In this document: piece after piece, positions 1-64,000 of the stretch | How the letters are laid out: each line of letters starts with the position of its first letter | How positions within the stretch are numbered: position 1 is the stretch's first letter | Origin: a virus | Taxonomy: Duplodnaviria; Caudoviricetes | Virus record (IMG/VR): IMGVR_UViG_3300033121_001553 | Coordinates: 32,001-96,000 of that record | Reading direction: 5' to 3' (one strand) | DNA: 64,000 nt | Position numbers and translations under genes: made by a program | Notes under the pieces: generated by a model | Told to the model about the DNA's origin: nothing | Seen by the model: the letters and a program-made list of their open reading frames with translations, nothing else | Databases searched by the model: none

Positions 1-597
1 AGCAAGAAAATAGTTATAAGCTTTTTTAAGTTTGAGATCTTTGCACAGACGAAGAGCGATGACTATCTCGCCGTACGTATTTCCAAGACAGAAGTTTATG
101 ATCAATGTTGCGATCGACGCGATCTTAGCAGATGTTTGTTCGACGGCTTGATTGTACGAATCGACAAACATCTCTTTATCTGTAAAGTTAACAGCATCTT
201 TTTTAAGCTTATTCTTGATCCATATCTTGTATTTTTGCAGAGCGTACATAAGAACATAATTGAACGCTGTTGTCGAGCTATTTTTGTAGATCGGTTCAAA
301 CGGTTGCGCGAATACGTCGCCGGGATCGTCGCTCATATGCTTAGCGCTGTACTCAGCAAAGTCAACTGCAAAAATCAACAACTCAGCCGCTGTTGCGTAG
401 TCAACAGAAAATTCTATGCATATCCTCAACGCAGCTGTTCTTATGATTATTCTACAGATCAGCAAATAGTCATTAAACGAAAAAACATTTTCGCTCTCAT
501 GTTGAACTATCATCCTCCCAGCTTCAACAATAGACTTGTAATGTTTTCGTAGCTGTACTATGTAAATTCTAATTATTTCGTCAACAAATTTATCCAT
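1..597 (-). CDS. Alpha-helical hypothetical protein, paralog family (runs off the left end of the window)
   Basis: Not in the ORF track because it has no stop in the window. ATG at 597, open to base 1 (MDKFVDEIIRIY...ELLIFAVDFAE...LRLCKDLKLKKAYNYFLA). Shares ELLxxxxD(Y/F)xE and LxRxxxxLKLxxA motifs with 1036..2172 and 2188..3333. Confidence 0.85.
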   Translation of the reverse strand, partial: MDKFVDEIIRIYIVQLRKHYKSIVEAGRMIVQHESENVFSFNDYLLICRIIIRTAALRICIEFSVDYATAAELLIFAVDFAEYSAKHMSDDPGDVFAQPFEPIYKNSSTTAFNYVLMYALQKYKIWIKNKLKKDAVNFTDKEMFVDSYNQAVEQTSAKIASIATLIINFCLGNTYGEIVIALRLCKDLKLKKAYNYFLA

Positions 598-598
598 A

Positions 599-1009
599 TC
601 AACCGTTATGCTGTCTTATGTAGCTTCTAACAAGCATACGTGTTTCAATACTTTCATCTGAAAATTCTCTGCTTATCGCTCTCGTTAGCTGTAGTCCAGA
701 CCCACCTGCTTTTTCGATCGCTACCCACGCAAAACGCCGCAGCATATCTGCCATCATCGTTCTGAAGTCTTCGTTAGACGTTATGTTTTTGTAGCCGTAC
801 TTTGCGCCTTCTTGCTCGGCGAGAATAACTGTTCTAACAAACAAATACCTAAATCTTTGCCCGACTACGCCAGCGACTTCACCGAACTTTCCACTTACAA
901 CAAATTCATCAAGCATACTGTCCACTTGCGCAGATGCTTCGTCCAAGAATGCATCATTTTCAATAGCTTCGCTAATGATCTCTTTTAGTTCGCTGAGTCG
1001 TATCTTCAT
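599..1009 (-). CDS. Hypothetical protein with N-terminal propeptide-like helix (possible virion protein)
   Basis: Starts MKIRLSELKEIISE; TATTTA motif just upstream. Confidence 0.75.
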   Translation of the reverse strand: MKIRLSELKEIISEAIENDAFLDEASAQVDSMLDEFVVSGKFGEVAGVVGQRFRYLFVRTVILAEQEGAKYGYKNITSNEDFRTMMADMLRRFAWVAIEKAGGSGLQLTRAISREFSDESIETRMLVRSYIRQHNG

Positions 1010-1014
1010 ACGCG

Positions 1015-1020
1015 TAAATA
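1015..1020 (-). promoter_or_regulatory. Candidate late-promoter motif TA(T/G)TTA (representative copy)
   Basis: TATTTA also at 5403, 7523, 11904, 13411, 16373 and 63064; TAGTTA at 22661, 52874, 54597 and 58753. Mostly 5-35 nt upstream of virion- or lysis-type starts. Confidence 0.55.
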
Positions 1021-1035
1021 TGCGAAGTGCCGCGC

Positions 1036-5424: not shown

Positions 5425-5895
5425 TAATTTTTTGTTTGTCTTCACGTTCTCAAGCATCGTTTCAGCGGGACCTTTAAGAACAAGCTTTGCTTTTGTGCCG
5501 TCATCAAGCATGACATAAGTCGGTTGTTCAACATGCTGAATTTCGGCTTCATTCACATTTTGATATGAACTTTGTACATTCTGTAGTCGATACTTCTCCG
5601 TTCTATCACCAATTTCAGCGATATAAGCATCGATAACGTTATTCATGCGTTTCTGGAGTTCGTCTCCGACTTGTGGTATTGACGTGTAAATAACACAGTT
5701 CGATGACAGCTCTTCTAGAACTTCTCTATTCGACGAAATGACACCGTCTTTGCTGATTTCTGCATAAACATGACGCTTCTTTTGACCATCAAGCGCAACA
5801 GTAATGTTAATCTCTACTATGGCAACAACCTTTATCACAAGTTTGCTACCAACAGACAGCAAATACAGTATCTGTCCAACGTTGTAGTCATTCAT
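5425..5895 (-). CDS. Hypothetical protein
   Basis: Start MNDYNVGQ overlaps the upstream stop region. Ends ...TNKK-TTA at 5425-5427 (standard-code stop 5410). Confidence 0.75.
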
Positions 5896-6187
5896 CTTGT
5901 TCTGATTCACTTCCATCATCAGCATCGCTATTATACTTTACGATGTTGATCGAGTACATCTGACTCATGCTTATCGCGTGATCTGGCGCTTCATCAATTG
6001 GAACATTAGCCGCTTTGCACAATTTTACGAGTTTGTTCCAAATTTTTGAATCTTGCTTCGCATCCATGAGTTTGCTTACTGGATCTGATACTTGTGAATT
6101 CGACACGACTATCGTAACGCCCATAAGCGCTCGCAGATGCTCAAGCTCATCACGACTCAACTTCAAATCGTATGTTTTTGTGGCCAT
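5888..6187 (-). CDS. Hypothetical protein
   Basis: 99-aa ORF; its ATG overlaps the TTA of the upstream gene (TTATG). Confidence 0.75.
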   Translation of the reverse strand: MATKTYDLKLSRDELEHLRALMGVTIVVSNSQVSDPVSKLMDAKQDSKIWNKLVKLCKAANVPIDEAPDHAISMSQMYSINIVKYNSDADDGSESEQDE

Positions 6188-6435
6188 AATTCATCACCGA
6201 GCAAAGCGTAAAATTCATCGTACGTATTTTTGTTATCAACAGACTCTACTATCTTTTTAACTCTCATTACTGCTTTAAGAGTTTTCATGTCGATTTTATC
6301 AGAGAACTCTTGGATGAGTTCCTTCCGCGACTCCGAGAGCTCAGCGAGCTCTTGTTCAAGTGCAGTGTAACGTTCAACAAACTCTTTGACATCATTCGGC
6401 TCATTCAAAACTTTATCTTCGTTTTTCTTCTTCAT
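6187..6435 (-). CDS. Small dsDNA-binding protein, GapR/DUF2312/T4 DsbA-like
   Basis: VKEFVERYTALEQE..ELSESRKELIQE....DMKTLKAVMRVKK pattern. Ends ...LGDE-TTA (standard stop 6163). Confidence 0.6.
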
Positions 6436-8196: not shown

Positions 8197-9699
8197 TAAG
8201 ACTTCTAGATAAAACTTTGGTCTAAAATTCATCGACACACCGTAGAATTTTAGATACGTTTGTATCGCGTTGTGCGTAAAGAGATAGAAGCCTTCTTCTG
8301 TAATGACAACGAGCGCCGTTGAACCAACAAATGCATTACCAACATTGAGTCTATCATTGATTTCTGTTATATACGATGTTGGATCAGCGTACTCAGTTCC
8401 AACTGCTGCTACTGCATCTGCTAGACTTACGATGCCATCTTCGTACGTGTATTCTGACTTGCTACCGAGTAGCTTCGCAAGTTTAACGAGTTTCGCTGTT
8501 TCAAGTTCACGCAGTTCATACGCTATATCTGGATCTATGTTGAGTAGCGTCTCTATCGCTGTTGTTCTTGCATCGAACATCTTGTACGGAAAAAGTTTTG
8601 TAAGCTCCCACATCGCGCGCATAATACCGTGTATGTTCGATATGAATGGCTCTGTTAGGGTTCCGCTGCTAAATGTCTTTTCGTAATGACTAATGAAATT
8701 TTTTGCGTACTCTGAAATCTTTATGATTTTTTCTATATTTGGAAGCTTTGCTATTGCTGAACGTGGTATCGAGCTGTAGACACTAACGTAACGTTTTATC
8801 GTGTTGAATATCTTAGAATACTCGACGTACACAGTTGAAGTAAACTCGCTTGATCCATGCACACCTGCGCGTATTACTGGACCGCTACTTCTTGTTATGC
8901 TTTTTACTTCGAGCTTCTGTCCGCCAGGTAGCAGCACATCGTACGTAAATGTATCAGAGCTTGATCTCTGACCGTTGAAAAGTGCGGCGACGAGCATCTC
9001 GCCGTCAGCGTCATCTTTCGATATGCGCAGCGAACGTGCATCGTAGTATTTCTCGTTACCGTCAGCGTCAACGTACGGTACACGATTCCACGGGACAAGT
9101 TCGTTATCATTGTGCAATGTGATGAACGACTCGTACGTTACGGGTGAACCGTAACTGCGTGTTGCCGACTTATCAAACTTCTGCTCTTTCTCAACTGCGC
9201 TAACAATCGCGTAGTCACTCATCTCAGGAAACATCATCGAGATACGTCGCTGTAGAACAGCAGGTATCGATGGACGCTTCTTTAGGAGCGCTGCTATGTT
9301 TCGTCCAACAGAGTCTTGCGTAGTTTCATATTCGCTATCAAATGCCAGCTTATACGCATCAGAAGTATCTATTGTTGTACCATCTGACAGCTTTACATCT
9401 GTATGAAATGAAAGATACGAAGCAACAAGCTCATTAAACGCATCACGTTGTTCTTCGTTGGCAGTTTTAAGAACATCGTGTATTACAGTAGCACCGATCT
9501 TTCTATTACTACCTGGCTTTAGTATCTTAGTCGCTGACGTAAGAAATTTTTGTGTATCTTCATTTTCGTGAAACAGGTCCCACAAGCCAATGAGCGCGTT
9601 TATTTTTGCGAATTCTTTAACACGCTTATCAAGCAAACCTTCATACAGCAAAAATTCATTCGCTATATTTTCTTTTAGCTGGCTTAGCCTCATTCTCAT
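8197..9699 (-). CDS. Propeptide-bearing protein with PD-(D/E)xK nuclease-like motif
   Basis: N-terminus MRMRLSQLKENIANE; internal GEMLVAALF...YDVLL...LEVKS; ends TTA-TAA. Confidence 0.55.
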
Positions 9700-11242: not shown

Positions 11243-11893
11243 TTATTTTTTCTTTGTGCCCATTGTCAGGTCACCAGGGCCAGTGCCCCAAGCACGTTTT
11301 CCACCAATCGCACCAGATCCGCCACCAAGCTTTAGATCACCAGAAGAAAAACCAGATCCGCCGCCGCCAGTTCCTGCGAATGGACTGCTACCGTGCGCTG
11401 ATGACATCGAACCTCTGAAGCCTTTCACATTTTCGCGTGCAACGAACTTGAATCCTATCTTAAGCAGTTCTGCTTTGATGTCTTTCGTCAATGTTGTTGA
11501 CGCTTTTTCGACATTACGTCCTGCTATAGCTGACTGGTAATTCCTTGCCAACGCTTGGAGCTCAGCAGCGCTGAACTCTTCTTCATCGTTATCAAGCTTG
11601 TAGTTGACAAAATTTTCGAAACTCTCAAATTCAGGCATCGCACGAAGTTCTTCGATCTCTTCATCGAATGCGTTGTCTTCAACTTTGCTGTAGTGCCCGT
11701 GGCTAGCACCGCGTTTGATGCTATGCTTACGCTCAAGCTTATCTTCATCATCTTCAAGGTACTTTAGATCTGTCGGTGTAAGATCTGTAAAACCAGGCGG
11801 TAGATCAAAAAATCCTTTTGGCTTTGGCGTTGCTTCTAGCACAAGAAGATGTTTTACATAGCTTTCGATAAGAAACTTGAAATTTGAATTCAT
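11243..11893 (-). CDS. Hypothetical protein with propeptide-like N-terminus and Gly-rich C-terminus
   Basis: C-terminal half of track ORF 11243..12724. Has its own ATG (MNSNFKFLIESYVKHLLVLE) after TATTTA and is separated from the nitrilase by four in-frame TTA codons. Confidence 0.75.
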   Translation of the reverse strand: MNSNFKFLIESYVKHLLVLEATPKPKGFFDLPPGFTDLTPTDLKYLEDDEDKLERKHSIKRGASHGHYSKVEDNAFDEEIEELRAMPEFESFENFVNYKLDNDEEEFSAAELQALARNYQSAIAGRNVEKASTTLTKDIKAELLKIGFKFVARENVKGFRGSMSSAHGSSPFAGTGGGGSGFSSGDLKLGGGSGAIGGKRAWGTGPGDLTMGTKKK

Positions 11894-11977
11894 AGCGCAT
11901 GCATAAATACACATCGCTAAGCAAGTTAATACTACGAATATCTCTAATCTAACTCCCCGTCTCAGATGAGGATTTAG

Positions 11978-12724
11978 TAAAACTTTAACAAGAAGTATCG
12001 ACTGTGATGAGTCTGACGTTGACTGAACATTTAGTCTTCTGTCAATAATCGTGCTGCTTCCAAAACAGTCTTCTCCTTCGTTAACGTTTCCTATTCTATT
12101 TGCAACGATAACAGCAGCGTCGAGTTCTTCTGCGAGTTGTATCCACTCATCTAGCGGACCAGCTGTTTTACCAGTTGCAGAACATGGTACGGCAACGATA
12201 TCAACAGAACCCTTCTTATAGAATTGAACATTTCGTTTGCCGTAGAACGGATGCGATTCACGGTAAAGATTTCTGCTATCACCAGAGATAAGCAAACCAA
12301 CTCGACCAAACGGCGTCATCGCAACTGGTGAAGGATCATCGCCAGGCATCGCCCAAACATGCTCATTACGATGAAGATTGTGTTTACGTGTTTTTGCTAC
12401 AATACTTCCCGCTGGATCAACGAGAGCTGCTGAGTCGTATATACCTCCCTCATTCAGCTCTACGTATCCAAACGCGATATAGCACGCGTTGTCTAGCGCA
12501 AGCTCAGATATGAACTGCAGCTCGCTGCTATCGCTCGTTTGCGCGTGTTCTATCGCTTCGTCTATGGTTGAGATCTTGCTACCGTTGAACGAACGTTCTG
12601 GCAAAACGATGAGCTTTGCGCCGCCAAGCGCAGCAGCACGAACCATCGCTGCGATCTTTTTCTTCATTTGATCTTGCGACTTCTCATCCCTATACTGCAG
12701 CGCAGCTACTTTCACAGAGCTCAT
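11978..12724 (-). CDS. Carbon-nitrogen hydrolase (nitrilase superfamily)
   Basis: KVAALQ, AKLIVLPE, RKHNL, GRVGLLISGD, VANRIG and FGSSTIID motifs. Domain ends ILLVKV, then TTA at 11978-11980. Confidence 0.85.
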
Positions 12725-12728: not shown

Positions 12729-13394
12729 TTATACTCCTATTTGTAATACAGCACCACGTGCAATGTCGCTCTTAAGTCTTGACATATCGCGTGGAGAAGC
12801 TGTGTATCCAAGCATATCAGCCTTCTTACGACCAATAGACTTTGCATCTTTTACTACCTGATCAGCAAGCTCTTCCCACGTTTCATCTTCGCTTGGGCCT
12901 TGGCGCATGTAGAAATCATTGAAGGCAGCTGATGTTGCCATAACTTCAGACTGATTTTCGATAAGAAAATTTATTTCATCGTCAGTTGGCGGATCTTCGC
13001 TTGACTTAAGCATCGACAGATAGTCAAAAAATGCTTCATCAAGTATGTCTTTGATCTTCTCGATATGCTCTTCTGTGATTCCAAGAAATACATACGGATT
13101 GTTAAGCTTCTCAAGCGTTACGAATTCGATCCTCTTAACGCCGCTAACTGTTAGGCCAAGCGCATCAGCAACGTCTTCAAGCTTTTTGCCGCCTTCAAGC
13201 GATCTGTAACGACGTCTCTCAGCGTCTTCCTGATCATCTTCAAGCTCATCTTCACGTGTCCAACGACCGCCTGGCGCGTATGTATCGTCGATCTCGTTTA
13301 GTCTCTGTGACTTTTTGTTTGCAGCTTCAGCAAGCTTTCTGCTGATTATCTTGCGTACTTGTGAACGAATGACTTTTTCTAGTTGCTTATCCAT
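12729..13394 (-). CDS. Propeptide-bearing protein with sigma-70 region-4-like HTH
   Basis: KKLEDVADALGLTVSGVKRIEFVTLEKL matches the region 4.2 HTH pattern; N-terminus MDKQLEKVIRSQVRKII..KLAE. Confidence 0.6.
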   Translation of the reverse strand: MDKQLEKVIRSQVRKIISRKLAEAANKKSQRLNEIDDTYAPGGRWTREDELEDDQEDAERRRYRSLEGGKKLEDVADALGLTVSGVKRIEFVTLEKLNNPYVFLGITEEHIEKIKDILDEAFFDYLSMLKSSEDPPTDDEINFLIENQSEVMATSAAFNDFYMRQGPSEDETWEELADQVVKDAKSIGRKKADMLGYTASPRDMSRLKSDIARGAVLQIGV

Positions 13395-13420: not shown

Positions 13421-13717
13421 TAATTTTTCTTGAGTCGCTGTAACGTTTGGATTACCAAAACGCGCATCAGTCCAGCGTCTACCAAAATATAGCCCAAGCA
13501 GCGGTACAAAATACGCTGTTGCTGCTGTTGAATCGAATTGTCTTATGTTCACTGGACCGATTTTTTCAAATATGCTTAGCATGTAAGCAAGTGTTGTTAC
13601 CCAAAACGATATGGTTACAAACGTAACAGTGATGCTAGGGTATCCAGCGCTGTCTTTTATCCATAGCCAACTTGCTGCTGGCGTGATCTCTTTTGACTCA
13701 TTATTTTCGTTAGCCAT
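13421..13717 (-). CDS. Putative holin (small two-TM protein)
   Basis: Two hydrophobic segments; adjacent to spanin-like genes. Ends TQEK-TTA (the standard stop at 13379 overlaps the next gene). Confidence 0.5.
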
Positions 13718-13721: not shown

Positions 13722-14165
13722 CTATTTAGCTATCAGCGCTACTATCGCTGCACCAATACCAGCACCAACTGCGATTGCTGCTATGTGTGTTACGTAAAAA
13801 AGCGCAGATGGTTTCGACGCTTCAACAGCAAGTCTTTCGGCCGCAATAGCACGTTCTTCAGCTGCTGTTTTTGTCGCTGTCAAAATTCGTACTTCACGTT
13901 CGTGTTCTGCGTCTCGCTGCATGAAATTTTTCTCATATTCAAGCTGCAGACGTTTACGTTCTTGTTCTAGCGCAAGCTGCATTTTATTCTGCTGGTACGT
14001 TGCGTCAGCTATCATTGTCGCTGCGGCGGCTTGATTCAGCAATGTGCCTGGCCACGGCGCAGTATCTCCCTGTTTCAAGTACGTTACTGCTGGTTTGTCC
14101 TGCGCATAAGATACTGACGTTATAAACAACGTTCCTATAACTGTAACAGTCCAAAGCTTTTTCAT
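13722..14165 (-). CDS. Secreted coiled-coil protein with C-terminal TM (spanin-like partner)
   Basis: Signal peptide MKK-hydrophobic-SYA/QD, coiled coil, C-terminal hydrophobic GxxxG helix; ends TAG. Confidence 0.5.
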   Translation of the reverse strand: MKKLWTVTVIGTLFITSVSYAQDKPAVTYLKQGDTAPWPGTLLNQAAAATMIADATYQQNKMQLALEQERKRLQLEYEKNFMQRDAEHEREVRILTATKTAAEERAIAAERLAVEASKPSALFYVTHIAAIAVGAGIGAAIVALIAK

Positions 14166-14551
14166 CTTTTCGCCTCAAAGTCAGCGCCAATAACATCAGC
14201 AAGCTTACGTGCAAGCTCTTCTGGTGAGTCATTTGACTCTTTTATGATTTTTTCAATCTCATCGCGCTTTCGTTTCTCTAGTTCATCAAGCGAAATCTTA
14301 TACTGCTGCTCAAGCTGCGCAAGCTTATCTTGATACTCTCGTTCTGCCGTCTCTCGCTTTCGTTGTTCTTCTTCATACGCTCGTTTTGTCTCGTCTATCT
14401 CGCGTTGACGTATCTTTCTTTCTTCGCTAAGAAGTTCTATCTGCTGAGACAACGAATGTTGACGACCAAAAAATACCCATGCGATAACTGCACCGATGAT
14501 CGCAAATCCCCAACCGATCCATGCAAATGCTTTTTTAATTTTTTCGATCAT
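14162..14551 (-). CDS. Putative i-spanin-like protein (N-terminal TM plus coiled coil)
   Basis: AWIGWGFAIIGAVIAWVFFG followed by a long E/K/R/Q coiled coil. Confidence 0.55.
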   Translation of the reverse strand: MIEKIKKAFAWIGWGFAIIGAVIAWVFFGRQHSLSQQIELLSEERKIRQREIDETKRAYEEEQRKRETAEREYQDKLAQLEQQYKISLDELEKRKRDEIEKIIKESNDSPEELARKLADVIGADFEAKR

Positions 14552-14745
14552 AACTTTCTTCTGTTATCCAACGAATTTGATATTCTTGTAAGTTTTCTAT
14601 TGACATCATCGATGCCAGACAGCACTGACTGCTGACGCAAAGAAACGTCTGCAAGACCAGCCCACAGACGTTTTATCTCATCAGAGTCTTGTATCGATTC
14701 TGTAACAAGACGCGCTATTATTTTCTTTATGTAAGCTCTTATCAT
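14551..14745 (-). CDS. Small hypothetical protein with propeptide-like N-terminus
   Basis: MIRAYIKKIIARLVTE; ends RRK-TTA overlapping the next ATG (TTATGA). Confidence 0.6.
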
Positions 14746-15106
14746 CAGACAAGATTTTCTCATAAATCTCGTCGATGTTTATGCCATTTTCATTTTTTTC
14801 TACTTGTTTTTCTTTGCGCTGCTCAGACACAGTCATTTGATCAAGAATACGTTGCGCTTCTATTTCTTGAAATGATTTTTCACCTCTGTGTATAAGCGAA
14901 ACCGCTGCTTCATCACCAGAACAAAATTTATCGATGAATACAGCAACAATTTTTTCTAGACTCATACGATGCAACTTGGCTGCATCTCTCCCGCGACACA
15001 AAAGATCTGTTGGCACAAATATTGTTGTGTCGCCTGCATCAACATGTTTTAGATAAAGATTTGACCATATTCTATTTTTGAGCTTCATTCTATTTTTGAG
15101 CTTCAA
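14732..15106 (-). CDS. Hypothetical protein
   Basis: Start TTG 15106 or ATG 15088. Ends ILSDDKS-TTA at 14732-14734 (the standard stop at 14681 gives a 65-nt overlap). Confidence 0.7.
15070..15105. repeat. Perfect 18-bp tandem duplication
   Basis: ttctatttttgagcttca twice (15070-15087, 15088-15105), encoding KLKNR twice. Confidence 0.95.
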
Positions 15107-15666
15107 GCTTCTCCAGACTCGCCCGCTCTATCTGCATTCGGTGCTGTGAACGAAGCATCGCGTTCAGCGCGCGAAACACCGATCTTGTACCCATGATTCT
15201 TCATTGTCGCTTGAAAAGAATCGCGTATTTCAGCGCTGTAATTTTCAAGTCGCTTCAGCGCTCTTCTGTGAAGCGTGTTTCTGTACTCAAGCAGACCTTC
15301 GTGATTCTCTATGAGACGTATAACATCACTTGCGAATGACTCAACATCGAACGTCTGTTCAGAGTCGTCTCCATCTTCAGTGAGCGCATTCGTTTCAGCT
15401 TTTGTAAAGTACGAGTCAACTTGCGAGTCAAGCGAGTCACCTGGTGATGAAGACTTTTTTTCTTTTTTCTTATCATCTTCTTTATCACCATCATCTTCTG
15501 ATTTTTCTGTACCATCTGTAGGTGGCTTCGGAGGTTCACCAGCTGGTGGAGCAGCGCCTCCTGTTGGCTGCGAAGGAGCACCAAGCCCAGCAAGCGGGTC
15601 TTGATCTGCTTCAGCAAGCAGAGAGAGCACGATTCTTCTGCGTAGTTCGCTTAGTCGCATCTTCAT
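15103..15666 (-). CDS. Hypothetical protein with propeptide-like N-terminus
   Basis: MKMRLSELRRRIVLSLLAE, then a Pro/Gly/acidic low-complexity linker. Confidence 0.8.
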   Translation of the reverse strand: MKMRLSELRRRIVLSLLAEADQDPLAGLGAPSQPTGGAAPPAGEPPKPPTDGTEKSEDDGDKEDDKKKEKKSSSPGDSLDSQVDSYFTKAETNALTEDGDDSEQTFDVESFASDVIRLIENHEGLLEYRNTLHRRALKRLENYSAEIRDSFQATMKNHGYKIGVSRAERDASFTAPNADRAGESGEA

Positions 15667-21548: not shown

Positions 21549-21752
21549 TAATTTTTTACCAACAACTATGTTGAAACGACAATGTACAATATCGTCATGA
21601 CCAGAAGACGCAGACACAAAAGTTGGACAGGCTCCATCTCCAACGTCTGCTAGTTGTTTTACAAGACAAGCAATTGCTTGAGCTGCCTCTTCTCGTGACA
21701 GCTCAAGCATAAATTCAGTAGTGTCTTTTGACAGCTTATGCAACTTTGCCAT
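21549..21752 (-). CDS. Small hypothetical protein
   Basis: Ends VVGKK-TTA at 21549-21551; the standard-code tail (to 21501) is AT-rich and intergenic-like. Confidence 0.65.
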
Positions 21753-21792: not shown

Positions 21793-22389
21793 TAAAACAA
21801 GCGCAGACTTCTTTAGTCTTTGCTGCAGAAGATAGCAGCTTGACTCATGCTCATCTTCTATGCCAGCAAGCATATTGTCAACACCACGCGTCAAAGTACC
21901 GCTTTCTTTCATGCAGTCTGCTGCTGATGCACAAAATGCCATGAACGTAACCTCAGCTTTGAGTGCCATTGACGCAAGCTGCTCTGCTGACGCACCTGTT
22001 GCCGAAGCGCCATCGCACATTACTTCAAACGCGTCTTGCACTAGTTCAGCGTGAGTTACGCAACTCACGATCGAAGAGTCGCCGCTGGTGCCAACAGCTT
22101 TTTCTGCGAGAACGTCAACATTACCGTCTGCCGTACCATACAACCGTGAGAATAGTTCATGATCTGCGTAAAACTGTTGACCCATCGTCTGCCAATGACA
22201 CGTCTGCAGTATCATAGCAAGAGCACGTGCACACGCAGCAAGAACGGCAAGCTCGCACGACTTTGAGCCACCAAGCTTTTCGCACATATTTTCAAAAATA
22301 AGCGCGTAGTTCGTTTGTCCAAGCAAAAGAACAAACGTAGCTTCATCAAGCTTACGATGCTTAGATGAAGAGGAAGTTATTTTTCTCAA
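21793..22389 (-). CDS. Dps/ferritin-like protein
   Basis: HWQTMG..FYADHELFSRLY...VDVLAEK and DEHE...YLLQQR motifs. Start may be ATG 22287. Ends KSALV-TTA (standard stop 21763). Confidence 0.8.
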
Positions 22390-26200: not shown

Positions 26201-26736
26201 CTTACTATTACGTCTTTTCCATATTCTTTAAGCATTGCTCTGTCAATGCGAGGAAACTTATAGAACCCTCGCTTGTTAGACAGCGAAACAAGCTTAAAAA
26301 TATTCTTCAGTCCTTCAGACGACTTCGCTAGCAGCACAAGATGATGTCGACGCTTTACAGGATTGAACCACTTGCTTGCATCTTTTGTCTCTTCTTCGTT
26401 CTCTATTGTGCTGCCGTCATCTTCATCTGACTTTTTCTTCTTTTCTCGCATCTCTTCTAGATGCGCTTCGTAGTGTGCACGCCATTCAGTCAAGTCGGGA
26501 TGATAGTACGCTTCAACGCCGGGAAGAAATTTGAATTTCTTCCCCGCTTTGTTCATGGCAACTGAATTTTGATGCGCATGCGGAAACATGTTCATATTTC
26601 CATGATCTGTAAGTGCAAGCGCATCCATGCCATTCTCAAAAGCGAAGTTCTGATGCTCGTCTGGATACCCAAGCCCGTCCATCATCGAGCCAACAGAATG
26701 CGCATGCAGTCCAACGAATTTTTTTGGAGCGTTCAT
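23227..26736 (-). CDS. dnaE: DNA polymerase III alpha subunit (family C)
   Basis: PHP domain (LHAHS, TDHGN), GPGRGSG, PPDVDTD, KHAGGV, KFDLLGL and YAFNSSHA motifs. Ends RRLV-TTA 2 nt before the next ATG (the standard stop at 23107 overlaps the HNH gene by 118 nt). Confidence 0.95.
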
Positions 26737-27683: not shown

Positions 27684-27698
27684 GATCAAATTTGCGCG

Positions 27699-37595: not shown

Positions 37596-37649
37596 TTCGA
37601 GCTTGGCATGTAGCTCATGTATGTATGCACGAGTCATGCCAAGCTCGAA
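37596..37649. repeat. Perfect 15-bp inverted repeat (24-nt spacer)
   Basis: TTCGAGCTTGGCATG (37596-37610) and CATGCCAAGCTCGAA (37635-37649). Confidence 0.95.
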
Positions 37650-37657
37650 AGATTTTT

Positions 37658-38131
37658 TAACGTTCCTGAAGAACCGAGTCCGCCGATACCACGAATTCCG
37701 TTGGATCCGCCAGAGTAATCAGTAGATGTAATGTTCTCTCTGTACCATTCCAGTGATCGATGAACTATATCAATCTTTTCGTACACTTGCGGTATCATCT
37801 GCGCGATACGATCACCTTTTGCAACGCGTAGCTCTTTATTTGTAACGTTTCTAAGTGCTACGATTATTTCTCCTGTGTAGCCAGGATCGATAACTCCTCC
37901 AACAGCGATCAACCCGCGTGCCGCCATTGAAGAACGAGACTCAATCTTCATGTAAAAATTCCCATTGACAACAATCGTTCTTATGCCAGTGTTGATCTTT
38001 TCACATTCAAATGGTCTGATGACATAGTCATCAAGCGCGTACAAGTCATACCCAACATCGTTATGATACGCTTTCGTTGGAACGATGGCTGAATCGTTCG
38101 TGACAACAATGATGAATGACTTTTCATTCAT
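37658..38131 (-). CDS. dut: Trimeric dUTPase
   Basis: GYDL, SRSS, GVIDPGYTGEI, GDRIAQ and RGIGGLGSSG motifs; motif 5 is followed by T then TTA (standard stop 37634). ATG 38131. Confidence 0.93.
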
Positions 38132-39341: not shown

Positions 39342-40142
39342 TAAGCTATTTCCACCAAGCTCTGCTAGAGCAGCATCAAGATCAGAAACTGTCTTCTGCT
39401 TCTCAGCCGGTGCACGTGCAGTCACAGCAAGATCAGCGACAACCTTATCAAGGCTATCAACTTGGGAACCTGCACGCTCGGTTGTCTCCTCTGACGGAGA
39501 CATCCAACGCTCAAGCAGTTCCTTGAGCTCTTCGTACGTTGGATACGTAACAATATCGGACGTTTGCGGCATATTTTCAAGCCACTTCTTTTCTTTTGCT
39601 TGATCTTTCGTAAGAACAGAAGGCTTACGTGCTGCATCGACAACAACATCAAGCGTCTGCTTACCTTGCCACACTCTGCCTGAAGGCTTCAGTGTGACAG
39701 TCAAGTCATACCCTTCCTTCTGATGAGTGAAGTCACCGATTTCTTCATTCGTGAAGAATGAAAGCAAGCGATCATAAACGTTCCTATTGAACGACCACAA
39801 CATCCAACCGGCGTCTTCATTCGCTCGATCAATGATCAAAGCGTATGTTGTCATCTTCGGATAGAGTTGCTTGCACAGTTCTCTATCTTCTGGTCTACCT
39901 GTCTTTTGAAGCTTCACGATAAAGTCATGAATTGGATCAGGCTTGCCAAGCTGGTGGAGCGTTGCCTTTCTACGCTCTTTACCAATATAGTAATAATGAA
40001 CCTCACGAAATGGAAGCCCATTTTCAAACCACGGAAGCACACGAACTTTGTATTCACCCTGCTCTGGTTTCCAGAGCGGAACACTAGAGCGATTATTCAA
40101 CGAGTTGATCTTCTTCTTAACTGCTTCGAGATCTAGCGGCAT
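39342..40142 (-). CDS. ssDNA-binding protein (gp32-like)
   Basis: WKP..G..KVRVLP, DPI and GYDL motifs, DLDAAL tail, position next to recA. Ends GGNS-TTA (standard stop 39330). Confidence 0.75.
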
Positions 40143-54629: not shown

Positions 54630-54971
54630 TTATAGCGGACTCCACTTTGACGTTTGCTTCGTAAAACGCATTGGCTTATAGCCACGTACTCTTGGCACAG
54701 CTTCAATGTAATTTGTTCCATCATCATCAAATTCATTTTTGAGATGATAAAAGTCCAGCACCTTGTCGCTTGGTATATTAAGCTCCTTAGCGAGAGATGC
54801 AGCTGCATCAGCGTTTTGTCTCTGCTCGGCGTCTTGTCTACCGACATTGTACTTTGTGCTGCCAGCACTGCTTGGAGCACCGCCTGTGATACCAAGATTG
54901 CCGATTTCGCTTAGTACTTCTCTGATTATTCTTTTTACGTCTTCTTCTCTAACAAATCTTTTTGACTTCAT
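54630..54971 (-). CDS. Hypothetical protein with propeptide-like N-terminus
   Basis: MKSKRFVREEDVKRIIREVLSE. Confidence 0.75.
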   Translation of the reverse strand: MKSKRFVREEDVKRIIREVLSEIGNLGITGGAPSSAGSTKYNVGRQDAEQRQNADAAASLAKELNIPSDKVLDFYHLKNEFDDDGTNYIEAVPRVRGYKPMRFTKQTSKWSPL

Positions 54972-55237
54972 AATGATCTCCAGGTCCTTGCAACAGGATC
55001 CCAGCTAAGTGAATTCATAGCATTCTCTCGTGAACGTGCGTACAACGCTCCATCTTCAAGCGTTAGTCTATACTCTGCTTCAAGCTTATCTTTCGGTAGA
55101 TTGAGCGTCTTTTGCAATGCTAGATACGCACCAAAAAATTCTCTATCAACTTCGCCTTTCGTAAGTTCTTTAATGGCTTCTTCTGTAAGCAAAGCGCTCG
55201 CAATGTAAGCCCGAAGTTCAGAAAGGCGAAATTTCAT
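54971..55237 (-). CDS. Hypothetical protein with propeptide-like N-terminus
   Basis: MKFRLSELRAYIASALLTE (ATG 55237); ends WRS-TTA overlapping the next ATG. Confidence 0.75.
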
Positions 55238-55719
55238 TCTCCAACCCAAGCAGGAATCTTAGCAGCAGCTGCAGTTACATACTTTAGTATGCTTTGAAGC
55301 GCAACGTAAGCATCTCTTGAATGCGCAAGATTCGTTTCTTTTGACTTATCGTATTTTGCTGCTGTACTAACAACAATCATGAAGATGTCTTTGAAAGCTT
55401 TCAGCTCGGCTGCCGCTTTCGCATTATCTGAAATCTGATCGATATCCATAACGCTTTGAGACAGCTGAACAAGAATAGTTTTCGCAGCAGTTAGCAACTG
55501 AAACATTTCTTCTGGCGTTTTATCTTCGCCAGAAGCAGGATTGTAATTTGCTGTTTTCGCTGCAAGCAGCTTTTTTAGCTGATACAATTTGTACGTTACG
55601 TTACGCAGTACGGCTTTTGCCTGTTCTTGCGTGAATGTACCTTCCTGCAGGAGCAAACGATCTCTGTACTCCTGCAAGATTAGATTACGTATTTGTTTTG
55701 GTGTTAGCTTGTATACCAT
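55234..55719 (-). CDS. Hypothetical protein with propeptide-like N-terminus
   Basis: MVYKLTPKQIRNLILQEYRDRLLLQE. Confidence 0.75.
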   Translation of the reverse strand: MVYKLTPKQIRNLILQEYRDRLLLQEGTFTQEQAKAVLRNVTYKLYQLKKLLAAKTANYNPASGEDKTPEEMFQLLTAAKTILVQLSQSVMDIDQISDNAKAAAELKAFKDIFMIVVSTAAKYDKSKETNLAHSRDAYVALQSILKYVTAAAAKIPAWVGE

Positions 55720-55737: not shown

Positions 55738-58700
55738 TAACGCTGGGATGCTGTTCGATACGACGAACTCAAGCGAAACGAACTCAATAGAACGCGTTGG
55801 TTGCACGTAGATCTTGCCACGAATCGTGTTGTTCTCTACGTCTGCTTGCGTTGTTGTCGTTGTGTCAATCTTTACGAGGTAGCGATCGACACCCGCGTTC
55901 TTCTTTGCTTTATCGAGGATTGGCTCAACAGCAGAAGCGAATCTTGCGAGCGTTGCATCTCTATTTGGCTCGAACAAGAATGTTCTTGCAACGTTTCTTA
56001 CGTCTCTTCTGAGAGAGATGAGCAAACGTCTTACGTTCACGCGATCGAGCGCTGACTGCGCTGCGAGCAGCGTCTTCTGTCCCCATACGACGGGTGCCTG
56101 TCCTGGGAACGAAACGATTGGGTTGATGTCTGCATCGTACAACACGTTCATGTTGTCCTTCGACAGCTTGACAGCAACGTTGACTGTCGTATTGAGCGCG
56201 CCACGCGTAAAGCCAGCTGGAGCGAACCATGGGAACGCGAGTCTATCATTCAACGCAAGCGCGCCGAGTACAGCGACAGATGGCGGGCACTGCACATTCG
56301 AATTTGTCGTTGGGTCTGTTATCACGACGTCTGGGAAGTACGCTGCACCGAACGAAGAGTCGAGACCACGGTTCAAGAACTCCTGCGACGTGTTGTTGAC
56401 GCTTGGGAGCTGAGCTGATGATGTAACAACAAAGTTGCTGCTGTCTCTCTCTTCGACGTCCATGATGTACAAAGCGTCGAATCTGTCTTCCGTTGCAAGC
56501 AACGCAGCGTCAGTAACAACTGAGTGTCTGATGCCTGGGATCGCGATTATCTGCGCATCGATATTCGTTACTTCCTTCACGATATCAATTGCCTTTATGT
56601 ACGATCTTACAGAAGGGCCAAGGTTAGTTCCGCGACCGTTACCGCTCTCCATATCCTGCGTTACGGCAATGTTGCTGATCTTTGACTCTTCTTCGTTGAA
56701 GATATTGACACCATCAAATCCGCCCTGCATGAAGAAGCTGAACTTGATGTATTTCTTATTTGGAGTTGTCAAGTCTGACGTTGACAACGCACGTGTCTTC
56801 GCTGTGTCGTCAGCTGTGATCGAACCGTTACGAACGTAGACAGCTTCGTTCCACTTCGTAGAGTCTGCGTACGTATTCGATGCTGTCGTCACCTTGATGT
56901 TTTCTAGCGAGAATACGTTCATGCAGTAACGATCTGCGTCGAGGATACCGTTTGCAGCTGTATCAGCCACACCCTGGTTATCAGCAGCAACAACATTCAT
57001 ATTTGTGCTGTAGAAATTTGGCATGTAACGAGCGTATCCGTCGAATGAACGATTACGTGCAACGCTAGAATTTAGCTCGTTTACATTCGCGCTGTGCTCG
57101 AACTTCACGCCCCAGTAAAACAACGGTTGGACTGTCTGTTTCTGACCCGTTCCGAGCGTAATGTTCTGACGTAGCGGAACAGGTGGTGTAAGCGTACGCT
57201 TTGCGCATAGCAACGAGTCAAGTTGCGAACTTGTAACTGCTTGCAGCGGAGCAGAACCGCTTGTGACAAGATGAGCAATGCCACGTATACCCATTGGCAA
57301 TGCAGTTGCATCGATTTCGCCATTTTCGACTGTTGTCGATACTTCTACTCTTACGTAACGTGACTTCTGCGGATAGTTACCAGCTGTCACAAGCTTCTGC
57401 GACTTCTCTACACGATTCCAGTCATAGTACGTGTAAAGATCACCGATTGCCTTTGCAACGTAACGATCAGAGCTTGGATCGAGCGAGAGACCTCTGAACT
57501 GCTCGAGTATCTTTACGTCAGTATCTCTATCAGTAATGTCTCTGATAATCAGATCGAATGTACCGTACTGGTACGCCGTGTCTGACGACGGTGTAAGATT
57601 TTCAATAGAGAACTTGATCTTGTTTGCCGTGCTTTCGCCGTCATCGATCGCATGCAGTCTAAAGAGGTTCTTGGCAACGCCACCGAACTTCTGAGATACG
57701 ATCCAAGGCGTCTTTGCAGCGCTGTATCGATCTTCAAAGTTCTCGTAGTTTGGCACAGTTGTCGAACCCGCATTGCGCCCAAGGGAGCTTGTTAGCAAGA
57801 ACGCAGCAGACTCAGCGCCAACAAGCGGTGCTGTAGAAGTTGCGCCCGCACCGCTCAATACGCTAACATAACCTGCACCCGTTACAACAGCGACAGCGCT
57901 ATGCACATCCCAGCTTGCGTAGAGATAATGACCAGCTTGCTGAAGTTTGAATGGATCAGTATTGAAAACATTCGCAAAGTAGTTTGGCGCCGTTATGTCA
58001 AATGACGCCGTAATGCAGTTAGGATACTTTGCGTCTGTACCCTTGTGACCATTCAGCAGCATTACGAATTCTTGCTTTGAAACGCCGCCAGCCGTTAGAA
58101 CAACTGTGCCAACAGCTGAACCTCTAGCAGAGGCGTCATCTGCGATAAGAGATGAAACTGGCTTGACGCTATTCTCAACAGATGAAGACAGTCTGAGCAG
58201 AACACCAGATGCCGCCATAAGTACGCCTCTTATGATCGGTACAGAGCTTGAGATATCTGGCGTTATACCGCCAGTTCCCTGAAGTCCTGCGCTGGAGAAG
58301 AACGTCGAACCATTGCTCTCAGACATCAGACATCCCAGGAAATATGTTCTTCCTGGAACACCATTTGTATTTGCATACGGATTCGACGTTATTGTACCAA
58401 CAGTCGACGGTTGATTTTCGCCAACAACAAAACCTGCTGCTGCAACTGTATCATCAGTCTCACGTTTCTTACCCTGACCAACGCCAAGAACACGCAAGTA
58501 AGTGGCTGCTGACGCATTATTCAGCCACTCACGCACTGCGAGTGGACCGAACTTCTTACCGTCAGTTTTACCGAAGACTCCCTGGAAGTCGTTGAAGTTA
58601 CCAAACGTTGTTGGAACAAACGCTGGTCCTTTCTGCGACGTACCAATGATGACTGCGGGTATTCCAGTAACTTCTGCTGCTACAGGAGCCGATAGATCTT

Positions 58701-58740
58701 TTTCGCTTGCGTTAACACCGCCGCTGCCGTTTTTTGCCAT
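55738..58740 (-). CDS. Tail sheath protein, copy 2
   Basis: KGPAFVP, PWFAPAGFTRG, INPI, WGQKTL, DRVNVRRL and FEPN motifs; ends PA-TTA-TAA. Confidence 0.93.
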
Positions 58741-61773: not shown

Positions 61774-61811
61774 TTTTAATTTATCTCCATCTAGGCTTTC
61801 AGCAATCGCTA

Positions 61812-63056
61812 TTACGATTTGTTACTAGCTCGAATAATTACACCGCTCTCAAGCCGAAACACGCGTTCGCCAAAGTTACGTGATGTTATTCTGCTTCTTA
61901 CAAATGTTCCATTGACGTACGTGCCTCTGTAAGGTGATGCAGCATACGGATCAGACGGATTCAAAAACTTTTTTTTCTTTGGATCGTTATAAAGTTGATC
62001 GTATTTTGAAAGACGAGGCAAAGTTGGATCTTGCGCGTAATAGTTTGGATCGATCAGCTCTTCTAGCTTCTCATTTTCTTCACGCTCACCAGCTTCTGAC
62101 GCATCGATATCAAACCCTATGTACGCAGGCGACACAAAACTACGTGTTGCAACGGGTGCGCCAGGTTCATCTCCTGGTATATGATACGCAGGTACGCTTA
62201 GCTGAAATTTGTATTTCACGATTCTTTCAGCTTTCTTCATATCATCAAAGTTATTTTCTGGATCGTACGCTTCAGACACATAAGCAACGAACCAGTAACC
62301 TTTGCTTGTTGAAATTCTTATCGTTCTCTCGCCTGTCGGCAAGTAAGATGCAAACAACTGCTGCATCATCTGATTCATATGAGTTACATACTGTGTCCAA
62401 AAAACAACTTCGTAGTTAGCTGTGTAGAACTGTGGTGATGGTAGCTGCACGTACTCCCACACACGATTAGTATCATCAGTTCTAATAAACGCTCCATCGA
62501 CAACATCGCTGTCAGACTTATTCATATGCGCAAGTTCATCGTCTGACGCAAGCATGTACTGATCGATCTGCGATGGTTCTACGGCTAGCGATTTATCATT
62601 TGGTATCGCATCTCTGTTCATCGGTCTTTGCGTATTAACGTCTGCTTGCGAAAGCAAACGTTTAATAACAAAATTGCCAGTCGACTGATTCATACCACGC
62701 CCAGTAATATCTTTTACTGGATCTTGAACGATACCTGTTCGTCTTATAGAAATAAGCGGAAGTATGAGATTACCGTTCTTGTCTCGAACTCCGAGATCGC
62801 GTTTCATCATTGCCCAACGCTCTCCGCTTGCAAAAACAACGGGAACTTTTTTAGCATTAGACGTATTCGTGCCAATAACTGTGAATCTGATGCCTTCGTC
62901 AAATGCTGTAGCAACAGCAACGTCAACATCTTCTATACCACACGACGGAACATTGACAGACGCTAGCTGTCCAGCGTAGCCAGACGGCGTTCCATCGCTG
63001 CTACCAGCTTCGTACCGTGTTACTGTGTCTGTGCTGGGGCCGCGTGTCGTTGGCAT
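61812..63056 (-). CDS. Tail completion/terminator protein (gp15-like)
   Basis: KVPV....ERW, LPLISIRR and MNQM motifs; position between neck and sheath genes. Confidence 0.6.
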   Translation of the reverse strand: MPTTRGPSTDTVTRYEAGSSDGTPSGYAGQLASVNVPSCGIEDVDVAVATAFDEGIRFTVIGTNTSNAKKVPVVFASGERWAMMKRDLGVRDKNGNLILPLISIRRTGIVQDPVKDITGRGMNQSTGNFVIKRLLSQADVNTQRPMNRDAIPNDKSLAVEPSQIDQYMLASDDELAHMNKSDSDVVDGAFIRTDDTNRVWEYVQLPSPQFYTANYEVVFWTQYVTHMNQMMQQLFASYLPTGERTIRISTSKGYWFVAYVSEAYDPENNFDDMKKAERIVKYKFQLSVPAYHIPGDEPGAPVATRSFVSPAYIGFDIDASEAGEREENEKLEELIDPNYYAQDPTLPRLSKYDQLYNDPKKKKFLNPSDPYAASPYRGTYVNGTFVRSRITSRNFGERVFRLESGVIIRASNKS

Positions 63057-63067
63057 CTAAACGTAAA

Positions 63068-63727
63068 TAACTCGTCGTAAAACGTGTTACCAGCAGTGGT
63101 GCTATTTTTATCCGAAATTTCTCTCTGACCTTCTATCGGTGGATCCAACGTACCATTTTCCTGGAGCTCTCTCTTGTCACCAGTCATACCCTCTTTGTTC
63201 TCTGGCAGGCCACGCTGTTGAACAAATGTTTTTTGAACAGCGTCTGGATCTGTGTATCTCTCGTCTGTTGGACCAAATATCTTTGTCTTGAAGTTAGACT
63301 CGCGTGCTGTTACGCCAATAAGCTTCACGCCGTCTGTGCGCTCTACCTGACCGTAGATGGCACGCATGTACGTAATTTCTGTTACTTCAAAGAACAAAGA
63401 ACCGTAAGAGAAAAAATCTCCAATTGACAGCTCTATCTGCTTGTCAAGCATATCTCTGTAATGCAGATACGCCTCTATCGTGTACGTATTTTCGTAGCTG
63501 AATGTGTCGATCTTTGCGTCACGTTCTGGTTGACCGACGATCGCATCAAGCACGATCGGATTCTCAAAAATTTTCTCCGGACTTTCGTTGTAGACAGAAT
63601 TTGCGCGCGTCTTGACTTCAGATATCGAATAGTAGTAGATCTTCTGACCGACGACATCTTTGATGTACTCTTTTGTTATATCGCTTATGAAATTAATTTC
63701 ACGTTCAGTTACAAATAGTCTTGCCAT
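63068..63727 (-). CDS. Neck/head-closure protein (gp14-like)
   Basis: GQKIYYY, VYNE...K.F and IGDF..Y...FFEV motifs. Ends FYDE-TTA 11 nt before the next ATG (the standard stop at 63020 overlaps the next gene). Confidence 0.7.
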
Positions 63728-63730
63728 CTG

Positions 63731-64000
63731 TCATCCTATAAAGATCGGTTTTGCGATCGGCACGTAGGCAAGCTGTTTTGCAATATTCTCAGCTCGTAGC
63801 GCTTCTTTTTCTTGCAGCTTATCGCTCGTAAGCTCCTTCAGCCACTCTACGATTGTGTCTACAAGCTTTGTTTTGTCTTCACGCGCTTGCGCTATCAGCT
63901 CTGCTCCATTCAGCTTCAAGTCTGCGCCCGGTATTGGGATTGTTTCAAGCTTCGTGCGTACAATGCCGAGCAGCTCTTTGCACAATGCTAGACAGTACTC
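63731..64000 (-). CDS. Neck protein (gp13-like), C-terminal part
   Basis: Frame open to the window edge: EYCLALCKELLG.VR.K...IP.PG....LNG.EL...A, ending P.FIG. Confidence 0.75.
   Translation of the reverse strand, partial: EYCLALCKELLGIVRTKLETIPIPGADLKLNGAELIAQAREDKTKLVDTIVEWLKELTSDKLQEKEALRAENIAKQLAYVPIAKPIFIG

Follow-up and report, generated by a model that had tools for sequence, protein, structure and literature searches.

Codes in which UUA serves as a stop codon are known from NCBI table 23, which applies to the mitochondria of Thraustochytrium and other labyrinthuleans, and from the plastids of peDinoflagellates, where both UUA and UCA are stops (PMC12574857). In two independent lineages the organellar change of UUA to stop accompanies a substitution of the conserved Ser204 of the release factor RF2, and a relaxed reading of the middle codon base by RF2 has been proposed for the organellar codes with a UUA stop, while in the mitochondria of the Marsupiomonadales and of Pseudoscourfieldia (Pycnococcus) both UUA and UUG have become stops via a modified mtRF1a (PMC12574857). 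The recoding published for phages runs from stop to sense, with TAG reassigned to Gln and TGA to Trp in crAss-like and Lak phages (PMC7886860, PMC6784885). Outside mitochondria and plastids, we found no published sense-to-stop codon change for phages or bacteria. The subject here is a candidate for such a change: a stretch of 64,000 nucleotides of phage DNA, comprising positions 32,001-96,000 of the IMG/VR record IMGVR_UViG_3300033121_001553 (186,819 bp, linear) and referred to throughout as the window, for which an earlier reading of the letters (the original prediction) had proposed that TTA acts as an additional stop codon. That reading knew of UUA as a stop from table 23 alone, which is too narrow a view given the plastids and the two green-algal mitochondrial lineages just mentioned; its central proposal, that UUA terminates translation, is supported by the sequence evidence collected below, on the strength of which TTA very probably does end translation in this phage.

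Other sense codons that have become unassigned, or that behave like terminators, include AGA and AGG in vertebrate mitochondria, CGG in Mycoplasma capricolum, and AGA and AUA in Micrococcus luteus, and phages with recoded stop codons have reportedly been described by Ivanova in 2014 and by Borges in 2022. The phage shares with the organellar UUA codes that the same Leu codon has turned into a stop, that it is absent from sense positions and found at the expected ends of proteins, and that no cognate transfer RNA (tRNA) with anticodon UAA was found among those encoded by the phage. UUA ends more than half of the genes in two of the three peDinoflagellate plastomes, as against one third in the phage; moreover, whereas the organelles have tiny genomes and a nuclear-encoded altered RF2, the phage has more than 237 kb, more than 200 genes and 44% G+C (GC), and leaves TAG nearly unused. 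With the Marsupiomonadales and Pseudoscourfieldia it has in common that a UUR Leu codon has gone from sense to stop, but UUG stays Leu in the phage, and whereas those mitochondria implicate an RF1-type factor, the set of stops used by the phage points to an RF2-like reader. Like the stop-recoded phages, it has a code different from that of its relatives and a large tRNA set of its own that includes the anticodon CUA; unlike them, its change runs from sense to stop. The resemblance to AGA and AGG in vertebrate mitochondria lies in a sense codon that has apparently lost its decoder and ends genes. However, in the mitochondrial, Mycoplasma and Micrococcus cases few gene ends or none at all are affected, under extreme compositional bias, whereas in the phage one third of the ends are concerned and A-ending codons are favoured.

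The contig containing the window is about 52% complete according to CheckV, has a GC of 43.8%, and comes from a large tailed phage with two tail-sheath paralogs of about 1000 amino acids (PHROG), a Gp23-type major capsid protein and a DnaE-type polymerase (Pfam); in a sister strain, public gene calls also include a ribonucleotide reductase with an intein, as well as ThyX and ThyA. The host is presumably bacterial; among isolated phages the closest DnaE is no more than about 31% identical, and no paper naming the sample accessions was found. Contigs of sister strains reach about 18 kb beyond the right end and about 32 kb beyond the left, so that some 237 kb of phage sequence were examined in total (the 187-kb contig and about 50 kb of flanks); the flanks contain small open reading frames (ORFs), 20 extra tRNAs, a helicase and a dCMP deaminase, and the two extended ends do not meet. 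Genes were predicted independently with what is called here the four-stop model, in which TTA was added beside TAA, TGA and TAG, and overlaps were settled by a greedy rule.

Related phages of similar GC devote about 1-2% of their interior codons to TTA (47-94 per roughly 4,500-4,900), from which some 600-1,200 sense TTAs would be expected here. The four-stop model has none among 60,611 body codons, a number that is zero by construction, and in this form the absence of internal TTA that had been claimed for the window extends to the whole 187-kb contig. The long ORFs of the standard code, which do not depend on the model, give much the same answer: over the whole contig they hold 17 TTAs among 34,011 interior codons, while the other two frames hold 817 and 364, and all 17 fall in fused, spurious or antisense ORFs. 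In the same set other A-ending codons are preferred (CTA 523, ATA 771, GCA 1048), so that base composition does not explain the loss of TTA. TTG is likewise common (474 of 34,011), and TTG and the CTN codons align to Leu in homologs. In the window itself, the ORFs of 1627, 1209, 1152, 998, 996, 1001 and 926 amino acids are all free of interior TTA, and in stop-to-stop frames TTA is confined to the first few codons, upstream of the real start, or to the last 1-17, with three exceptions in which it lies 40, 144 and 245 codons ahead of the standard stop; off-frame, antisense and spurious ORFs of the window are, by contrast, rich in TTA. No TTA stands at an interior position aligned to homologs in any gene that has them, including DnaE, the ribonucleotide reductase and the sheaths, which is where the original prediction had suggested that contrary cases might be sought; the few TTAs that do align to homologs represent the last aligned residue, or lie upstream of the true start or of the conserved N-terminus.

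Two further points about rare codons may be added. Regulation through rare TTA codons of the bldA type was considered and rejected, given that no credible gene has an interior TTA and that the phage tRNAs include no tRNA-Leu(UAA). Separately, CGG is nearly as rare in gene bodies as TTA (16 as against 17 per 34,011), and at six CGG codons with homolog columns (window 23107-26736 and other genes) the aligned residues are mixed, several being Glu/Asp or Trp rather than Arg, though these sites are too few to interpret.

At gene ends the picture is reversed. The 210 genes that the four-stop model finds on the contig end in TGA (97), TTA (68), TAA (39) or TAG (6), and 22 of the 70 in the window, which lie on the minus strand except for one, end in TTA. 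Standard-code ORFs carry TTA at 60 of 4,140 positions in their last 20 codons and at 63 of 56,278 in their bodies, a 13-fold enrichment (Fisher p = 9e-37), where the next-highest codon is enriched only 2-fold. All 20 sites listed in the original prediction read TAA on the plus strand and are hence in-frame TTA on the coding (minus) strand; the four-stop model recovers 19 of them as gene ends, and the 20th, at 37658, is in frame in the dUTPase ORF, which was dropped by the overlap rule. Each of the five C-terminal peptides quoted there (GSSGT, KIEVK, IEQGY, LLVKV and FVFEI) can be read directly before its TTA, and the sequence contexts bear out the six cases in which TTA follows a Lys codon. 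The TTA ends described individually in the window are as follows.

TTA at 5425..5427, minus strand: ends gene 5425..5925, 5 codons ahead of the standard stop.
TTA at 6187..6189, minus strand: ends gene 6187..6435 and overlaps the ATG of the next gene (TTATG), in the context GAA TTA TGG.
TTA at 8197..8199, minus strand: ends gene 8197..9699, with TAA directly after it.
TTA at 11978..11980, minus strand: ends the nitrilase (CN_hydrolase) gene 11978..12724 as codon 249; the CN_hydrolase match ends at residue 245.
TTA at 12744..12746, minus strand: ends gene 12744..13394, 5 codons ahead of the standard stop; absent from the earlier list.
TTA at 13421..13423, minus strand: ends gene 13421..13717, 14 codons ahead of the standard stop; kept in loci L059 and L060.
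TTA at 14551..14553, minus strand: ends gene 14551..14763; gene 14162..14551 adjoins it through TTATG.
TTA at 14732..14734, minus strand: ends gene 14732..15106, 17 codons ahead of the standard stop; kept in L059 and L060.
TTA at 21549..21551, minus strand: ends gene 21549..21752, 16 codons ahead of the standard stop; kept in L059 and L060.
TTA at 21793..21795, minus strand: ends gene 21793..22389 as codon 199; compared with homolog stops below.
TTA at 23227..23229, minus strand: ends the DnaE (Pol III alpha) gene 23227..26736 as codon 1170; compared with homolog stops below.
TTA at 27699..27701, minus strand: ends the metallophosphoesterase gene 27699..28526 as codon 276; the Pfam Metallophos match ends at residue 244.
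TTA at 28568..28570, minus strand: ends the HSP20 gene 28568..29050 as codon 161; the HSP20 profile ends at residue 158 (profile position 100 of 102).
TTA at 29096..29098, minus strand: ends the gene 29096..29488 for an all-alpha pyrophosphatase of dUTPase_2 type as codon 131; the Pfam profile ends at residue 130.
TTA at 29717..29719, minus strand: ends the ThyX gene 29717..30415 as codon 233; compared with homolog stops below.
TTA at 36593..36595, minus strand: ends the 5'-3' exonuclease gene 36593..37540 as codon 346; compared with homolog stops below.
TTA at 37658..37660, minus strand: ends the trimeric dUTPase gene (ORF 37634..38293, Pfam dUTPase match) right after the C-terminal GSSGT, 8 codons ahead of TGA.
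TTA at 39342..39344, minus strand: ends the gp32-like single-stranded-DNA-binding protein gene 39342..40142, 4 codons ahead of the standard stop; an end in the four-stop model.
TTA at 54971..54973, minus strand: ends gene 54971..55249; gene 54630..54971 adjoins it through TTATG.
TTA at 55738..55740, minus strand: ends the tail-sheath gene 55738..58740, with TAA directly after it; the PHROG tail-sheath match reaches residue 997 of 1001.
TTA at 63068..63070, minus strand: ends gene 63068..63727, 16 codons ahead of the standard stop, and removes an overlap with gene 61812..63056.

A few of these frames deserve a closer description. In that of the nitrilase, with codons counted from stop to stop, TTA occupies positions 252, 263, 269 and 272, the 225 codons after these are free of it, and a separate gene (about 11243..11920) lies in the same frame past the three additional TTAs; similarly, a gene at about 27267..27695 follows the metallophosphoesterase in the same frame, and the metallophosphoesterase ortholog in the related locus L061 has a TTA at the corresponding place. 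The ThyX frame has a second TTA 4 codons downstream that overlaps an ATG (TTATGA) and so marks a possible start of the next gene, the exonuclease frame has a TTA at codon 28, upstream of the conserved N-terminus MILLIDGLNL, and the trimeric dUTPase ends in the context GGT TCT TCA GGA ACG TTA.

One way of accommodating these observations without any change of code would be for TTA still to mean Leu, but to be extremely disfavoured and tolerated only in dispensable C-terminal extensions, the true ends then being the next TAA, TGA or TAG. Rare codons can indeed cluster near gene ends, and CGG is comparably rare in gene bodies; however, CGG is enriched 2-fold at ends where TTA is enriched 13-fold, and the comparison with homologs also goes against it. 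When the stop codons of homologs in related loci were projected onto the query, they fell 0-3 residues from the TTA in six genes, which answers the check proposed originally: the homolog stop compared with the TTA was 1171 (median) and 1170 for DnaE (n=51), 277 and 276 for the metallophosphoesterase (n=5), 131 and 131 for the dUTPase_2-type protein (n=30, interquartile range 131-131), 197 and 199 for gene 21793..22389 (n=8), 230 and 233 for ThyX (n=4), and 343 and 346 for the 5'-3' exonuclease (n=11). For DnaE, 5.8 billion proteins were searched, and the 120 matches listed span 85-93% of residues 700-1209 (90-93% in most cases) and stop aligning at about residue 1169, immediately before the TTA at codon 1170, so the tails beyond TTA, whose conservation in homologs would have been a serious objection, are not kept; the C-termini of homologous DnaEs (...KRLD, ...KRIKI) match the ...TRRLV just ahead of the TTA. 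The Pfam domains of HSP20, the dUTPase_2-type protein and the nitrilase also finish just ahead of it.

The tails themselves, taken as the codons from the terminal TTA to the following standard stop or gene start, have lost the signature of coding sequence. Their 838 codons include 15 further TTAs (1.8%), equal to the off-frame density, while G occupies the first codon position in 20% of them, down from 33.7% (p = 5e-18), and rare codons are twice as frequent; to judge from this composition, the sequence downstream of TTA is non-coding. If it were instead translated, the architecture of the genome would suffer in several places. Standard-code reading would fuse the nitrilase and the metallophosphoesterase each to its next gene, the original prediction having likewise spoken of two apparent fusions, and outside the window it would join a scaffold-like gene to the Gp23 major capsid gene, which are parted by TTAs alone and of which the latter itself ends in TTA; the product would be a fusion of 1127 amino acids in place of a capsid protein of 629. 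Two convergent genes meet at genome 15686-15744, each with its TTA end on one side of a terminator hairpin that has a perfect 11-bp stem and flanking runs of A and T, and through which the standard-code ORFs would run. Treating TTA as a stop reduces overlapping bases on the contig from 2,523 to 1,365, in agreement with the earlier claim that long overlaps disappear, and the overlap between DnaE and the HNH gene in particular turns out to consist of a false 39-residue tail that the standard code adds to DnaE. Together with differences in tail length between near-identical strains, described below, these observations make a merely disfavoured Leu codon a very improbable explanation.

Turning to the immediate surroundings of the TTA ends, no conserved motif is apparent (no position exceeds 0.26 bits), and standard stops that might act as a backup are no nearer after TTA than after TGA or TAA. 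TTATG stop-start junctions occur at 7 of the 68 TTA ends, and TAATG junctions at 4 of the 39 TAA ends. These contexts also bear on the idea that ribosomes pause at a hungry UUA codon and slip by one base onto an out-of-frame standard stop, as was once proposed for AGA and AGG in human mitochondria. TTA is followed by A or G at 27 of its 68 ends, where a +1 slip would give TAA or TAG; but at the other 41 it would give TAT or TAC, a -1 slip gives NTT and hence never a stop, and the sites have no slippery or stimulatory motif around them. Frameshifting of this kind is accordingly rated as highly improbable.

Since the base identities at the TTA sites were taken from assembled contigs, some kind of artefact, whether an error of sequencing, of assembly or through base modification, or an edited sequence, must also be considered. 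Several related strains are available for comparison. The DnaE with the false tail belongs to a cluster at 90% identity that spans JGI, Logan and ENA assemblies, and a stretch of 23.6 kb found in JGI sample 3300045333 and in SRR23702518 (Logan) is 98.76% identical to the window, with 254 substitutions, and keeps 11 of 11 compared TTA sites. These substitutions affect 2.5% of third codon positions but 0.37% of first and second positions, and further strains occur in several other samples, one of them (in an ENA assembly) about 94% identical. The same TTAs are thus present in assemblies of different samples whose variation has been shaped by purifying selection; on the bases that the original prediction wanted confirmed, independent assemblies agree. 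Moreover, no sequencing error can generate a pattern tied to the reading frame, and a second lineage, 45% divergent at DnaE, has the same trait. An artefact is therefore extremely improbable. Within the 90% cluster, two members have a standard stop that shortens the DnaE tail from 39 to 6 residues. The tails that could be compared between strains amount to 165 nucleotides with 1 substitution, which is too few bases for a test of selection.

The strain comparison also yielded some incidental observations. Between the strains that are 98.8% identical, the sister strain has a net insertion of 21 nucleotides in a hypervariable patch at the N-terminus of HSP20 (window 28888-28928), and only one further indel was seen over the 23.6 kb. 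At window 15105, where genes 14732..15106 and 15103..15666 adjoin, strains differ by an 18-nucleotide direct-repeat indel (TGAAGCTCAAAAATAGAA). Several assemblies from different samples (L065:15180-15255, L069, L070 and L071) break within some 200 nucleotides of one point, which lies about 3.7 kb left of the contig start and is crossed by a 171-kb sister contig; the breaks could reflect repeated sequence, variability of the region or the physical end of the genome.

The second lineage just referred to is the nearest other one, represented by L061 and L062 (SRR13076530 and SRR13076534), with a DnaE 55-56% identical and a GC of 46%; it has 1 TTA in 3,238 interior codons, TTAs near the ends of its ORFs, and no TAG ends. 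Beyond it, about 130 relatives (50 from IMG/VR and 80 from metagenomes) that were found via DnaE, at 38-54% identity, read TTA as ordinary Leu, and no further TTA-stop lineage was found among them. A quick DnaE tree places the phage in a single group with its sister strain and L061 (SH-aLRT 100), and the neighbours of that group, L063/L064/L001 and L079/L080, use the standard code; because the trait is confined to a single clade in this tree, one origin suffices for it, and on these sequences it is an inherited trait of a clade of at least two phage lineages. Two sets of apparent candidates were rejected. In L123 and the clade with 39-41% DnaE identity, DnaE is nearly free of TTA, but neighbouring genes spend 9-23% of their Leu codons on it, so that the avoidance is a bias of that one gene; in L001 and L129 (GC 52%) TTAs are rare but interior. 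The bias in question is seen across L104-L119, L123 and L131, whose DnaE genes have 0-5 TTAs per roughly 95 Leu codons at a GC of third codon positions of 0.27-0.40, although TTA still means Leu there.

Relatives of the phage also carry inteins in DnaE, DnaB and ribonucleotide reductase, at differing sites, and in the L061 lineage DnaE is split around a Hint-type domain; in the window, the large subunit of ribonucleotide reductase (30816-34274) contains an intein (Pfam Intein_splicing, public gene call). The Shine-Dalgarno signal of the phage is weak.

If TTA is accepted as a stop, the question becomes how release is brought about, and here the tRNAs are relevant. The contig has 12 tRNAs and a sister-strain contig past its right end a further 20, making 32, whose Leu members, Leu(UAG), Leu(GAG) and Leu(CAA), serve every Leu codon except UUA; no tRNA-Leu(UAA) is present among these 32, a count that concerns the phage and not its host. 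The three tRNAs with Leu anticodons (L072:5571-5646, 5822-5895 and 6512-6587) are of 74-76 nucleotides, with a 5-nucleotide variable loop, are mutual paralogs, and in two cases have an encoded CCA; bacterial tRNA-Leu usually has a long variable arm. In the standard-code relatives G004 (98% complete) and G002 (87%) there are 7-8 tRNAs and a transfer-messenger RNA (tmRNA), and the sole Leu tRNA is a normal long-arm Leu(UAA) of 86-87 nucleotides. Among standard-code relatives, tmRNA (tags ANNNNHFDSVRLAA and ANNNYHYEQRLAA) and tRNA-Leu(UAA) are found at L174:297-382 and 2173-2512, L182:15935-16021 and L181:5354-5720; no tmRNA was found in the sequence of the TTA-stop phage that was scanned, namely the contig and seven loci from flanks or relatives, and in L166:1-10500, where few genes are called, neither Rfam nor tRNA scans gave a match.

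The phage also has a tRNA with anticodon CUA (genome 154237-154308, L056:16237-16308), 72 nucleotides long with G1:C72, A73 and a short variable loop, which follows at 11 nucleotides a TTA-ended gene for a Pth2-type peptidyl-tRNA hydrolase (L056:15884-16222); Pth2 is present too in the relatives L063 and L064, which read TTA as Leu. The original prediction held that TAA, TGA and TAG all remain in use as stops, which stands for TGA and TAA but not for TAG: the latter accounts for 2 ends in the window and for 2.9% of all ends (6 of 210), as against 19% in relatives (p = 1.4e-10). Long genes contain no interior TAG, and three of the credible TAG ends have a TTA or TAA 0-3 codons further on, too few to allow a call. 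A stop-to-sense recoding of TAG or TGA was rejected, since no gene is interrupted by either and the coding density under code 11 is 96-97%, even though a tRNA of suppressor type, the tRNA(CUA), is present.

The reading preferred here is that ribosomes in infected cells would stop at UUA, TAG having been nearly abandoned, because a class-I release factor of RF2 type with a relaxed reading of the middle base recognises U-[A/G/U]-A, the factor being supplied by the host or by an unsequenced part of the phage genome. UUA would be open to such capture because no tRNA-Leu(UAA) competes for it, and the stops that the phage employs, U-[G/U/A]-A but hardly UAG, fit an RF2-type reader. Granted that TTA terminates, an RF2-type factor is the somewhat likelier agent; the statement as a whole, of UUA as a true stop beside TGA and TAA, read by an RF2-type factor with a relaxed middle base, is judged on the sequence data to have slightly better than an even chance of being right.

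Several points weigh against this reading, and they mostly concern the missing factor. Profile searches with Pfam RF-1 and eRF1 / eRF1_2 over six frames of the 187-kb contig gave no match (a PCRF match of 18 bits was below threshold, lay inside an open frame of 712 amino acids and was dismissed), and neither the contig nor some 50 kb of sister-strain flanks yielded a GGQ motif resembling that of a release factor, the loci scanned for GGQ in context being the contig, L061, L062, L065, L070, L072, L076, L077, L159, L160, L162, L166 and L167. Five standard-code relatives are likewise without a release-factor gene. In addition, the lack of a phage tRNA-Leu(UAA) says nothing about the tRNAs of the host, and the phage set also has no decoders for other codons that are in use, such as AGA, so that this gap taken alone is weak evidence.

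The main rival, doubtful but to be taken seriously, is that UUA has become unassigned: with no decoder, whether through absence of tRNA-Leu(UAA) from the host or through its inactivation by the phage, ribosomes would stall and the protein would be freed independently of the codon, either by peptidyl-tRNA drop-off and hydrolysis by the Pth2-like enzyme of the phage or by a rescue factor of ArfB/ICT1 type. The failure to find a release factor in about 237 kb agrees with this, as does the Pth2 gene beside the tRNA(CUA), but Pth2 occurs equally in relatives for which TTA is Leu. A phage whose host Leu tRNAs were disabled would need its own Leu(CAA), which reads UUG only, Leu(UAG) and Leu(GAG), the short-variable-region forms that are indeed present. 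However, one third of the genes, including that of the major capsid protein, end in TTA, and a slow process of stalling and rescue, or tagging by tmRNA, would be ill-suited to such a load. The near-equal frequency of TTATG and TAATG suggests a normal coupling of termination to reinitiation, and the lack of nearer backup stops at TTA ends, noted above, likewise speaks against this rival.

Early-type genes are relevant both to this rival and to the supplier of any factor. The regions L076:1-18000 (right) and L166:1-10000 (left) consist of long runs of ORFs of 55-130 amino acids with no Pfam match, which are free of sense TTA and yet end in TTA in 6 of 45 cases, as against 68 of 210 (p = 0.011). 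This pattern counts in favour of an unassigned UUA. At the same time, the lack of sense TTA in early-type genes argues that UUA cannot be read even at the outset of infection, which favours a property of the host or a packaged factor.

It is also conceivable, though unlikely, that the phage itself imposes the code, by removing UUA decoding, bringing its short Leu tRNAs, and releasing at UUA with a factor that is virion-borne or encoded in its unsequenced part; were this so, messenger RNAs (mRNAs) of the host and of competing phages that use UUA for Leu would be truncated while the TTA-free phage was immune, a means of host shut-off and of excluding rivals. The version in which UUA is made a stop only after infection, as a weapon that truncates host mRNAs while the tRNA(CUA) disturbs the UAG stops of the host, is distinctly unlikely. 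It can draw on the standard-code relatives, which show the ancestral state and confine the trait to a young phage clade, and on the near-complete set of 32 tRNAs where relatives have 7-8; the phage has an amber-reading tRNA and shuns TAG, its early-type genes favour canonical stops, and stop-recoded phages of standard-code hosts are said to offer a general precedent. On the other hand, such a factor did not turn up in the roughly 237 kb examined, and since early-type genes already avoid sense TTA, UUA would have to be unreadable from the very start. It should be added that this scenario overlaps with the favoured reading of an RF2-type factor, from which it differs solely in who supplies the factor.

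If termination at UUA is correct, this would be a sense-to-stop change in a virus of a free-living cell, affecting more than 200 genes, and with no compositional pressure against TTA. It would show that even a large genome can rid itself of a frequent sense codon and take it over as a stop, and the question of how this happens would be a tractable one in this clade, with its two TTA-stop lineages and their standard-code sister groups. There are practical consequences too: standard gene callers would give about one third of the proteins of this phage false C-terminal tails or fusions, as has happened in the public records retrieved (a DnaE of 1209 and a metallophosphoesterase of 419 amino acids), and the same annotation error must affect any phage or host with this code. 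Finally, the finding predicts an RF2-like reader of UUA or some other route of release, which would be relevant to the specificity of release factors and to engineered genetic firewalls.

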